Sequence record: NC_048205.1
Direction: 5' to 3' (one strand)
Origin: Escherichia phage vB_Eco_mar004NP2
Length of the DNA stretch: 64,000 bases
The position numbers and the translations under genes are program-made. Below are positions 18,912-20,897 of this stretch, piece by piece. Below the pieces are notes generated by a model. It saw nothing but the letters and a program-made list of their open reading frames with translations. It was not told the origin of the DNA and made no database searches. Positions within the stretch are counted from its first letter, which is position 1, and each line of letters starts with the position of its first letter.

Positions 18912-19646
18912 ATGAATAAAGCTATCATGAATCTTTCCCGCAGCTTCCCGCATATTTCCCGCGTCATGATTTGGGATTTAGACGGCACTATCATTAATTC
19001 TTTCCATCGTGTAGCACCCTGCTTTGATAGCGAGGGCAATTTAGATTTAAATAAGTATAAAAATGAAGCGTGTAAACACCATTTAATAATGCAAGATACT
19101 TTATTGCCATTGGTTGAATATATGCGCCAGTGCATGAATGACGCAAATACTTTAAACATTATTTGCACCGCTCGACTGATGAGTAAGTCGGACTATTATT
19201 TCTTGCGTAAACAAGGGTTGCGCGGTCGTGGTAATAGTAATATCCGCGTATTTTCCCGCGATACACTACACAAATATTTTAAAGCTGATAAGGTTAGCGA
19301 AATATACCACAGCAAAGACGCAGTATATAAATCTTATTATTTTGAATTATTTAAACAGTTATATCCTAACGCTGATTTTACAATGATTGATGATCATAAA
19401 GGCGTGCTATCAGCGGCAGCGTCATACGGATTTAAAACGCTGGACGCACAAGCCGTTAATGATATTCTATCAATCGGCGTGGCATTGATAGGTGAAACCT
19501 TTATTGATGAATCTCTCGACGATGATAATGATTATCAATTCCTAGCTGACCGTTTAAAATTATGCTGGGAAGGTATGACCGAGGAAGAACGCGCAGAATA
19601 TAGTTGCAGTCCTCAACAATATATTGAGAAATTAAAAGTTGCCTAA
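18912..19646 (+). CDS. dmp: HAD-family 5'-deoxyribonucleotidase (dmp-like)
   Basis: N-terminal HAD motif I MIWDLDGTI; 244 aa. Confidence 0.7.
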   Translation: MNKAIMNLSRSFPHISRVMIWDLDGTIINSFHRVAPCFDSEGNLDLNKYKNEACKHHLIMQDTLLPLVEYMRQCMNDANTLNIICTARLMSKSDYYFLRKQGLRGRGNSNIRVFSRDTLHKYFKADKVSEIYHSKDAVYKSYYFELFKQLYPNADFTMIDDHKGVLSAAASYGFKTLDAQAVNDILSIGVALIGETFIDESLDDDNDYQFLADRLKLCWEGMTEEERAEYSCSPQQYIEKLKVA

Positions 19647-19798
19647 CAATTAAAGTTGAAATAGTCACGGTGTGTAATGATACCATGCCGTGACTATTAG
19701 CCTGCTAAGTACCGGGCGGTAATGAGACTCATTCTCATCTGGGGGGCCACTGGACACACCCACGCGTACGTAATCCAAAGAAATTGGCAAAAGTCAAA

Positions 19799-20044
19799 TT
19801 AGCGCATAGAAGGGTCATCAAACCTGTATTCTGGTCTGAACTCACGGAATCTCTTCCGCGACGCCCGAGATCCATCCGACCACTCCCGCTCAAACTCCGC
19901 ACGTTTCTCGTCAAACTTCCGCTCCCTTTCCGCAATCTCCCGCGTCACTCCCGCAATATATTTACGATGCTTATTGATTGCCGCAGTCGTCCCGAAAACT
20001 CCCGTGAGTATCCCGATAATAAAAGCAATTACAATACTAAACAT
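19799..20044 (-). CDS. small membrane protein with charged helical tail (81 aa)
   Basis: TM helix FSIVIAFIIGILTGVFGTTAA; 8-nt overlap with upstream ORF. Confidence 0.5.
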   Translation of the reverse strand: MFSIVIAFIIGILTGVFGTTAAINKHRKYIAGVTREIAERERKFDEKRAEFEREWSDGSRASRKRFREFRPEYRFDDPSMR

Positions 20045-20231
20045 CTAATTCCCTCTCAATTTGCAGAATACGGGTACTATCACAGCGTTGAAGCTCTACT
20101 AATTTTTCTAGTGCAAATTGTTGCTGCTTTACCTGGGCCTCTAGAGTTTTTAGGCGAACATACGCGGTATAAGAAACAATGAAAATTGCCCAGATTAATA
20201 TTACTATTAATGTAGCTGCCACTTCCATCAT
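20037..20231 (-). CDS. small membrane protein with coiled coil (64 aa)
   Basis: TM helix plus heptad-like tail; ATGA overlap with upstream ORF. Confidence 0.5.
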   Translation of the reverse strand: MMEVAATLIVILIWAIFIVSYTAYVRLKTLEAQVKQQQFALEKLVELQRCDSTRILQIERELDV

Positions 20232-20335
20232 TTACGTTTCTCCAGCAATAAAGTTTCAATTCTAGCTAAGTGATTATCTAAAATACATTGCCCAATAATC
20301 ACAATCCCTAATAGTGCAATAATTACCCATTCCAT
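20228..20335 (-). CDS. tiny membrane protein (35 aa), not in ORF track
   Basis: translated by hand; TAATG overlap with upstream ORF, ATGA with downstream. Confidence 0.35.
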   Translation of the reverse strand: MEWVIIALLGIVIIGQCILDNHLARIETLLLEKRK

Positions 20336-20463
20336 TAAATCCACCCCGCCATAGCTGCTAACCAAAAACCTACGAAAATAAAGAATAGGAGAGTTCCGAA
20401 CCCAAAACTATTTATCCAACTCTCATACACCTCTCCGCGTCTATTATTTCTTTTGTTTGACAT
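20335..20463 (-). CDS. tiny membrane protein (42 aa), not in ORF track
   Basis: translated by hand; RBS GGAG upstream; hydrophobic C-terminal half. Confidence 0.35.
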   Translation of the reverse strand: MSNKRNNRRGEVYESWINSFGFGTLLFFIFVGFWLAAMAGWI

Positions 20464-20630
20464 ATCTTTCGTGCTCCCATAAATGTGATATTTTAAAATA
20501 TGTGCATAACCAACCGTGCTTGTGGACTCCTAGAAGGACTTCTACTTTTCTTACATAGTGGTTTCTGCCAATATACCATCCAAGAAATAAAAAATTTAGT
20601 TTACTTGGATGTCTTTTTGTTTTATACTAA

Positions 20631-20897
20631 TTACAGGTAATTAGATTGCTCTAGTTTAAATTTACAATCACCATATTTAAGGTCAAACTGACTGAGATCC
20701 CACCACCCAAATTTAGTACGGAGCTGTACTACTGGAAAGCGATCTCCCTTAATACGAACTTTTTGAACCTTGAGACCGTAATATTCTTCTCCCGCACCAC
20801 CAAAAGATTTTACAAATCCCGTACAAAATGGTTTGGGAGCAGGTACACAACCAGATAATATAACTGTGGCAACTAGTGCAATTACAAACTTTTTCAT
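20631..20897 (-). CDS. llp: Llp-like lipoprotein (receptor-blocking, superinfection exclusion)
   Basis: signal peptide plus lipobox LSGC; 88 aa; divergent from receptor-binding protein gene, as in T5 llp/oad. Confidence 0.65.
   Translation of the reverse strand: MKKFVIALVATVILSGCVPAPKPFCTGFVKSFGGAGEEYYGLKVQKVRIKGDRFPVVQLRTKFGWWDLSQFDLKYGDCKFKLEQSNYL

Follow-up and report, generated by a model that had tools for sequence, protein, structure and literature searches.

Small inner-membrane exclusion proteins that phages express during infection, such as Imm and Sp of phage T4 and gp15 of HK97, are dispensable in the laboratory and provide a second barrier besides the blocking of receptors. In T5, a classical model phage whose relatives are widely used in biocontrol, the only exclusion gene to have been characterised is llp, which encodes an outer-membrane lipoprotein that concerns one receptor and co-varies with pb5. 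Adjoining that gene in the T5 reference genome (NC_005859/AY543070), in the interval from llp (T5.158) to position 111532, where the right terminal repeat starts, are the small genes T5.159, T5.160, T5.161 and T5.162 (129, 108, 195 and 246 nucleotides (nt), respectively), for each of which the 2004 record (AY543070) notes that it "contains single transmembrane domain". Literature searches with the locus tags turned up no paper in which T5.159-T5.162 are discussed by name, and the papers on the Llp structure, the BF23 genome and the proteogenomics of phiR2-01 make no mention of them. The present analysis concerns the corresponding cluster of four overlapping open reading frames (ORFs) in Escherichia phage vB_Eco_mar004NP2 (NC_048205.1), which occupies positions 19799-20463 of the stretch of 64,000 nt that was analysed (the window). 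What is new here is evidence that these genes are real, are not pre-early, are independent of receptor type, are modular in copy number and are predicted to face the cytoplasm.

The comparison with described systems yields likenesses of several kinds. In relation to T5 itself, the window carries the same genes with differences only at the level of sequence, next to llp and pb5 genes of a different type than the FhuA-specific one of T5. The products of the four ORFs resemble T4 Imm and Sp and HK97 gp15 in being small phage inner-membrane proteins expressed in infection, but share no sequence or profile similarity with them, and are predicted to be single-pass proteins with virtually no periplasmic exposure. 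The Llp/Cor-type gene is adjacent, lies on the same strand, probably belongs to the same transcript and shared the outcome of the four genes in a knock-down screen; whereas Llp resides in the outer membrane, the four proteins are predicted to reside in the inner membrane, and they do not co-vary with the receptor module. With LapA/YciS (PF06305), ZapG/YhcB and PspB, ORF3 and ORF4 have in common their size, an N-terminal transmembrane (TM) helix, a basic juxtamembrane stretch and a cytoplasmic helix, but no homology is demonstrable, the best score of ORF4 against LapA_dom (21.6 bits) lying below the Pfam gathering threshold of 28. Finally, in T4 the small accessory proteins RI and RIII modulate a holin with one TM segment, the class III holin T, and the T5 holin is itself T-like; RI is periplasmic and RIII soluble, however, and the four ORFs show neither similarity to them nor adjacency to lysis genes.

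Identity, conservation and expression of the cluster

The window represents a T5-like phage genome, read in reverse orientation and with its terminal repeat collapsed, and the 1-kb region around the locus shares 99.9% identity with Salmonella phage SPLA5b and has matches in 344 records of T5-like phages. A reading of the letters alone (the original prediction) had described four minus-strand ORFs of 42, 35, 64 and 81 amino acids (aa), and these are present exactly as described: ORF1 (20335..20463; phrog_8596, E 2.4e-30; 88% identical to T5.159), ORF2 (20228..20335, 35 aa from its ATG, for which the ORF lister gives a TTG-extended version of 45 aa; phrog_6369, E 1.7e-25; 94% identical to T5.160), ORF3 (20037..20231; phrog_5851, E 1.9e-34; orthologous to T5.161) and ORF4 (19799..20044; phrog_6447, E 7.2e-47; orthologous to T5.162). 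In a PHROG profile search with hmmscan, each ORF covers the whole profile of its own family (E 1e-25 to 1e-47). The lengths, order and overlaps of the ORFs are identical to those of T5.159-T5.162, amino-acid identity to the T5 proteins is 84-94%, and synteny and one predicted TM helix per protein accompany the full-length family matches. The agreement in size, order, overlap, identity and family thus establishes, with near certainty, that the four ORFs are the orthologues of T5.159-T5.162 and form a membrane-protein operon. The locus was accordingly already known, in the form of annotated T5 genes and catalogued hypothetical membrane proteins; the original prediction described it correctly and did not recognise that annotation.

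Consecutive ORFs share 1, 4 and 8 nt, at the junctions TAATG (ORF1/ORF2), ATGA (ORF2/ORF3) and ATGTTTAG (ORF3/ORF4), as had been claimed, and a purine-rich Shine-Dalgarno-like element can be read from the sequence 5' of each of the four. In several GenBank records the small ORFs bear wrong, propagated labels ('tail assembly protein', 'tail fiber protein' or 'H-N-H endonuclease').

Pooled Nei-Gojobori ratios of non-synonymous to synonymous substitution (dN/dS), calculated for the window against 27 related loci, are 0.115 for ORF1, 0.101 for ORF2, 0.279 for ORF3 and 0.313 for ORF4, and the variable sites of all four fall mostly at third codon positions. The geometry of the overlaps is kept among distinct relatives (ORF1/ORF2 in 22/22, ORF2/ORF3 in 19/19 and ORF3/ORF4 in 19/20), and in phages that are devoid of ORF3 the overlap is re-created between ORF2 and ORF4 in 7/7, which together argue that translational coupling has been selected. 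Matches to ORF1 are found in 446 phage records, to ORF4 in 442 and to ORF3 in 313, as compared to about 440 records that contain a dmp gene at least 80% identical to that of the window; ORF1 and ORF4 are therefore essentially universal in the Tequinta- and Epseptimaviruses. The four ORFs are genuine genes under purifying selection, and the proposed operon of small membrane proteins, translationally coupled, is upheld by their conservation, by the retention of the overlaps and by transcription of the locus in the relative Bas33. That they might instead be chance ORFs or non-functional remnants at an intergenic junction could be suspected from their very small size (two are below 45 aa) and from the GenBank records in which they are left unannotated; the dN/dS values of 0.10-0.31, the third-position variation, the conserved overlaps, the PHROG matches, the presence in about 440 genomes and the transcription leave that explanation with practically no probability, and the conservation data already refute it.

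On the opposite strand, a TTG-initiated ORF of 132 aa (19784-20182, plus strand) runs antisense to ORF3 and ORF4. It is most likely a shadow ORF, as the codon-position variation favours the minus-strand frames.

Expression of the cluster could be followed in Bas33, a T5-like phage for which RNA sequencing 20 min post infection has been published (bioRxiv 10.64898/2026.01.13.699316, Table S1; reads in ENA PRJEB101990) and in which the cluster is present in a five-gene version (bas33_0191 to bas33_0187). Transcripts per million, for replicate 1 and replicate 2, were 162 and 137 for the 156-nt paralogue of ORF2 (bas33_0190), 462 and 408 for the 195-nt ORF3 (bas33_0188), and 22 and 13 for the 246-nt ORF4 (bas33_0187), as compared to 219 and 127 for llp (bas33_0192) and 252 and 162 for pb5 (bas33_0193). 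The numbers of reads go up and down from one gene to the next (2, 479, 1, 1704 and 104 along the operon), and the near-zero counts of the 108- and 129-nt genes are probably an artefact of per-gene read assignment in tiny overlapping genes; if the alternation were real, it would point to unusual transcript processing. When infection was arrested after first-step transfer by daunorubicin, the counts of all the Bas33 cluster genes were zero and dmp was still expressed. The annotation of T5 and chee24 likewise places the operon in unique sequence just before the right terminal repeat, outside the DNA of the first-step transfer. The cluster is thus transcribed only after second-step DNA transfer, to an extent roughly comparable with llp; an assignment to the pre-early genes was rejected, as the repeat starts downstream of ORF4 and the transcripts vanish under the arrest, and on the same grounds it is very unlikely that the genes regulate how the phage's own DNA enters the cell, as had been suggested.

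The only functional data found come from T5, the transcriptome of which has been screened by CRISPRi-ART knock-down (source data of Fig. 6a in Adler et al., Nat Microbiol 2025, PMC11879866); T5.159-T5.162 received scores of -3.86, -3.55, -4.11 and -3.60 and were all classified as 'Not Fit', as was llp. The HIDEN-SEQ study included no T5-like phage.

Modularity of the cluster among T5-like phages

The cluster occurs in four forms. Most phages, including T5, carry four genes; others carry three genes without ORF3, or three genes without ORF2 (Yersinia phage phiR2-01), and a fourth form possesses five genes, with an additional protein of 51 aa encoded between ORF1 and ORF2. That protein is a paralogue of ORF2 (BLASTP E 1e-6), sharing with it the MEWVII start and the RIETLL..K end, and its gene is found in two of the related loci (L015 and L016, between about 555 and 400 nt 5' of the ORF4 start) and in Bas33 (bas33_0190). 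A profile-profile comparison of the ORF2 and ORF3 families by hhalign yields a match with 73% probability (E 3e-5), and the two families are probably distant paralogues that are present in one to three copies per cluster. ORF3 is naturally missing in approximately 30% of genomes and is an optional member of the cluster, a conclusion for which natural loss is better evidence than the knock-down screen.

Variation of a different kind is found at the end of ORF4, the last 14 or so residues of which (19799-19840 in the window; L016-L027 among the relatives) exist in at least four unrelated versions, exemplified by EFRPEYRFDDPSMR, MSESGDKPVDRRSS, AKVSDEE and SKIDGKS. The point of replacement adjoins the boundary of the terminal repeat, which suggests that recombination has occurred there recurrently. 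Single isolates carry an ORF4 with an internal deletion or a frameshift.

The receptor module next to the cluster varies independently of it. The llp gene of T5, which is of the FhuA type, displays no detectable similarity to llp of the window, and the pb5 protein of T5 is only 30% identical; T5 nonetheless retains the four small genes at 84-94% identity, and relatives of the BtuB type retain the same four. The constancy of the cluster across llp/pb5 types indicates that it does not co-vary with the receptor module.

In two further T5-like phages the position is occupied by other genes. In Klebsiella phage vB_Kpn13-P2 (L031, 3861-4544, between the receptor-binding protein and dmp), the llp lipoprotein is missing, and genes of 74 and 151 aa are found instead whose products begin with an N-terminal TM helix and continue into a tail that is coiled-coil or charged, in a manner that resembles the architecture of ORF3 and ORF4; the 151-aa protein has a long, low-complexity C-terminal end rich in serine and glycine. 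A test for homology of these two proteins to ORF3 and ORF4 gave no support for it (hhalign probabilities of 18% and 2%), and the likeness is taken as one of architecture only. A T5-like phage of Proteus carries unrelated soluble genes at the equivalent position.

Predicted topology and candidate functions

Each of the four proteins contains one strongly hydrophobic segment of 19 residues (best Kyte-Doolittle values 2.09-2.61), and TM prediction gives one helix per protein, in keeping with the hydrophobic helix that the original prediction had assigned to each; the tails that it had assigned to two of them are also borne out, that of ORF3 being heptad-like and that of ORF4 highly charged (18 K+R and 13 D+E). 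ORF1 begins with a K/R-rich N-terminus and a conserved GEVYxxWxN motif and ends in its TM helix (residues 24-42, the last 19), within an alignment of relatives that displays an invariant FVGxWLAAMAGW motif. The other three proteins begin with their TM helix, which takes up approximately the first 20 residues and is succeeded by basic ones. In ORF2 it is followed by a short DNHLARIETLL..KRK tail, and in ORF3 by a helical or coiled-coil tail of approximately 40 residues with an invariant C-terminal QRxDxxRIxQxERELDV. In ORF4 the helix harbors an invariant G11xxxG15xxG18 and is succeeded by an equally invariant basic juxtamembrane NKHR, a long E/R/K-rich helix and the variable C-terminal tail. 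An AlphaFold2 model of ORF4 consists of one continuous helix from residue 2 to residue 69 (predicted local distance difference test score 75), with a low-confidence tail beyond it.

ORF1 is predicted to be tail-anchored with its N-terminus inside and nothing beyond its TM helix, and ORF2-ORF4 are predicted by the positive-inside rule to have their N-termini outside and their C-termini inside, so that all soluble parts of the four proteins would be cytoplasmic and almost nothing periplasmic. The conserved small-xxx-small motifs in the TM helices of ORF1 and ORF4 suggest helix-helix packing. A two-component spanin of the Rz/Rz1 type was rejected as a candidate: the tails are predicted to be cytoplasmic rather than periplasmic, ORF1 ends in a TM helix, and T5 possesses separate Rz-like spanins.

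Beyond the T5-like phages the searches returned no relatives. Word-indexed searches across 5.8 billion proteins, for which ORF4 and ORF1 served as queries, and an exhaustive profile search of 1.84 billion representative proteins with ORF4 recovered T5-like phage proteins only; a match labelled 'Bilophila' lies on a contig of 461 bp and is most likely contamination. As judged by these searches, the families are orphans restricted to T5-like phages. Sequence searches of Pfam, PADLOC and PDB with the four ORFs found nothing above threshold. The similarity of ORF4 to LapA_dom reaches E <= 0.1 in 10/11 family members, all of them sub-threshold, and one member of the ORF4 family weakly resembles ZapG-like proteins; the LapA_dom resemblance reads as shared architecture.

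With respect to function, it is suggested tentatively, as the preferred reading but one that is possible rather than probable, that the products form a small inner-membrane complex, co-expressed with Llp, that gives the infected cell a receptor-independent layer of protection or exclusion. The four proteins would pack, via the small-xxx-small motifs of their TM helices and via their helical tails, into a complex with ORF1 and ORF4 as its core and the one to three paralogues of the ORF2/ORF3 type as exchangeable adaptors. As an accessory to Llp, this complex would condition the inner membrane of the infected cell and might provide a second layer of defence, for example by blocking the formation of an inner-membrane channel, or DNA entry, by superinfecting phages that escape Llp. 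Since the same four genes accompany both the FhuA-type module of T5 and the BtuB-type modules of its relatives, exclusion, if there is any, must be receptor-independent. A link to llp is favoured by the common strand, by the weakness of the hairpin that separates the genes and by the lack of a separately annotated promoter in T5. An accessory character is favoured by the 'Not Fit' scores that the genes share with llp and by the loss, truncation or frameshift of ORF3 and ORF4 in some natural isolates.

A more specific proposal, in which the ORF1/ORF4 core and its exchangeable paralogues constitute a lineage-specific complex that acts within the bilayer and at its cytoplasmic face, either in exclusion or in the neutralisation of a membrane-embedded host defence, appears rather unlikely; one possible mode of action would be to block the channel formed by the tape-measure protein of an incoming phage. 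Were it correct, it would define a new mechanistic class of exclusion protein and would explain why the cluster is retained whatever the outer-membrane receptor. More generally, if a second, receptor-independent layer of exclusion or anti-defence exists, the design of phage cocktails would be affected, in that T5-like phages that bind different receptors might still exclude one another in co-infections, and the proteins would represent a new type of small effector confined to the bilayer.

Several observations weigh against the suggestion of a protective complex associated with Llp. No PADLOC-DB family of defence or exclusion proteins was matched by any of the four ORFs at E <= 1, and no sequence or profile similarity to known exclusion proteins was found in PHROG or Pfam. 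With essentially no residues predicted in the periplasm, contact with an incoming phage would be possible only within the bilayer. The T5 screen also classified lys (endolysin), ltf (L-shaped tail fibre) and the tail gene N4 as 'Not Fit' (PMC11879866), which marks it as insensitive and prone to many false negatives, so that it shows dispensability only weakly. The similarly built genes of the Klebsiella phage occur without llp, and the association with llp may be positional only; co-transcription with llp is itself something that we infer, and the two smallest genes of the Bas33 cluster are covered by only one or two reads each.

Other functions must be weighed against the same data, and sequence tools do not separate the four functional readings. 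The proteins may modulate host inner-membrane proteins or counter host defences, with their TM helices binding, inhibiting or redirecting a host membrane protein and their tails recruiting or blocking cytoplasmic partners; we consider this somewhat unlikely. The host protein in question could be a protease such as FtsH, a factor of envelope biogenesis, a transporter or an abortive-infection effector embedded in the membrane. Such a role is consistent with the conservation of TM residues in ORF1 and ORF4 beyond mere hydrophobicity, with the accessory, lineage-restricted, copy-number-variable character that is typical of host-interaction genes, with the comparably built genes at the same position in the Klebsiella phage that lacks llp, and with the recurrent likeness of ORF4 to LapA_dom and, in one member, to ZapG, both of which serve envelope biogenesis as cytoplasmic coiled-coil adaptors that are anchored by their N-terminus. 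The searches gave no match at curated thresholds and none in PADLOC, however, and anti-defence genes, which evolve fast, would less typically be near-universal and under purifying selection as strong as that on ORF1 and ORF2.

Holin/antiholin systems, too, typically include small TM proteins whose cytoplasmic tails are charged, and the four proteins could be regulators of lysis timing: as membrane-anchored, cytoplasm-facing partners, of the antiholin or RIII type, of the T4 T-like holin T5.041, they would adjust the moment at which this holin triggers, possibly in response to superinfection. T4 rI and rIII mutants are viable, with which the 'Not Fit' classification of accessory genes would agree; the T5 holin has a single TM segment, like T4 T, and ORF3 scores 13 bits against the MS2 lysis protein, a very weak match that lies below the gathering score of 25. 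This function is nevertheless unlikely: the cluster lies about 90 kb from the T5 lysis genes (T5.040-T5.045), which already comprise an endolysin, two Rz-like spanins and a holin, the four ORFs matched none of the holin or antiholin families of Pfam or PHROG, and the predicted topology, N-out/C-in with an empty periplasm, is unlike that of RI or of known holins. To our knowledge, lysis inhibition is not a described trait of T5. The original suggestion of a role in lysis thus stands only in part, regulation of the holin from the cytoplasmic side being possible; a direct effector is improbable, given the endolysin, T-like holin and spanins encoded elsewhere and the lack of a predicted periplasmic domain. 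Very unlikely, in turn, is a role like that of phi29 p16.7, in anchoring phage DNA metabolism to the membrane, in which the basic helical tail of ORF4, on the cytoplasmic side and together with its partners, would tether replicating or packaging T5 DNA to the inner membrane. The build of ORF4, in which a long helix with 18 K/R residues extends from an N-terminal TM helix, and the position of the cluster beside the terminal repeat, where concatemers are processed, would suit such an anchor, but the tail is nearly charge-balanced (18 K/R versus 13 D/E) and contains no recognisable DNA-binding fold, the genes are 'Not Fit', ORF4 carries an internal deletion or a frameshift in some apparently viable isolates, and position is a weak argument.

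Neighbouring genes and regulation of the locus

The cluster is situated between dmp and a lipoprotein gene, as the original prediction had noted. On one side lies dmp, encoding deoxynucleoside-5'-monophosphatase (18912..19646, plus strand; 93% identical to T5 dmp), which comes first among the genes of the terminal repeat, converges with the operon and is often mislabelled 'polynucleotide kinase' in GenBank records, after phrog_415; the plus-strand neighbours on that side consist of an A1-like gene, two small genes and dmp. Between ORF4 and dmp, an 11-bp hairpin followed by a U-rich stretch (19660..19698, minus strand) is a probable terminator of the operon, and the boundary of the terminal repeat falls in the same region, according to the annotation of T5 and chee24. 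On the other side lies llp (20631..20897, minus strand), which encodes an 88-aa lytic-conversion or Cor-type superinfection-exclusion lipoprotein (phrog_1119, E 7e-24; lipobox match LPAM_1), and beyond it a plus-strand gene for a receptor-binding protein of 585 aa.

Immediately upstream of ORF1, an alignment reveals a conserved leader (20464..20513, minus strand) with a GGGAG Shine-Dalgarno-like element 10 nt 5' of the ORF1 ATG. Between T5 and the BtuB-type phages, homology resumes only about 50 nt upstream of ORF1, at what constitutes the left edge of the conserved module, and the small ORFs are therefore evolutionarily separable from llp. A promoter and terminator scan of the locus found no convincing sigma-70 promoter before ORF1 or internally and no canonical terminator, manual inspection upstream of ORF1 found weak -35/-10 candidates only, which are unconserved in T5, and in the T5 record a promoter is marked only upstream of llp, not ahead of T5.159. 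The hairpin just 3' of the llp stop (20577..20611, minus strand) has an 8-bp stem, a large loop of 19 nt and no U-tract, and would thus be a poor terminator; read-through from the llp promoter is likely, and these signals suggest that the operon is likely to be co-transcribed with llp. Rfam and tRNA scans of the locus produced no matches.

The spacer between llp and ORF1 (20464-20630) contains a stop-interrupted trace of the C-terminal part of an acidic protein of 104 aa, which in Epseptimaviruses is encoded there by a gene that overlaps ORF1 (for example, bas29_0207); the trace is detected by tblastn with E 0.004 in a tiny search space, and by blastn at 76-79% identity to phage SuperGirl. The gene for this protein seems to have been lost upstream of ORF1 in the lineage of the window.

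Small membrane proteins are a general and unexplored feature of T5 that is not confined to T5.159-T5.162, as the early region (10-26 kb) contains many more small ORFs with one or two annotated TM domains (T5.020, 021, 027, 029-031, 048 and 049). The interval from llp to dmp is also a hot spot for insertions: one related locus (L021, 2434-2781) carries a 115-aa homing endonuclease of the HNH/AP2-like type between llp and ORF1, SuperGirl (L029, 2915-3130) carries a 71-aa 'putative homing endonuclease' after ORF4, and Bas33 possesses an extra gene of 540 nt (bas33_0186) between ORF4 and dmp.

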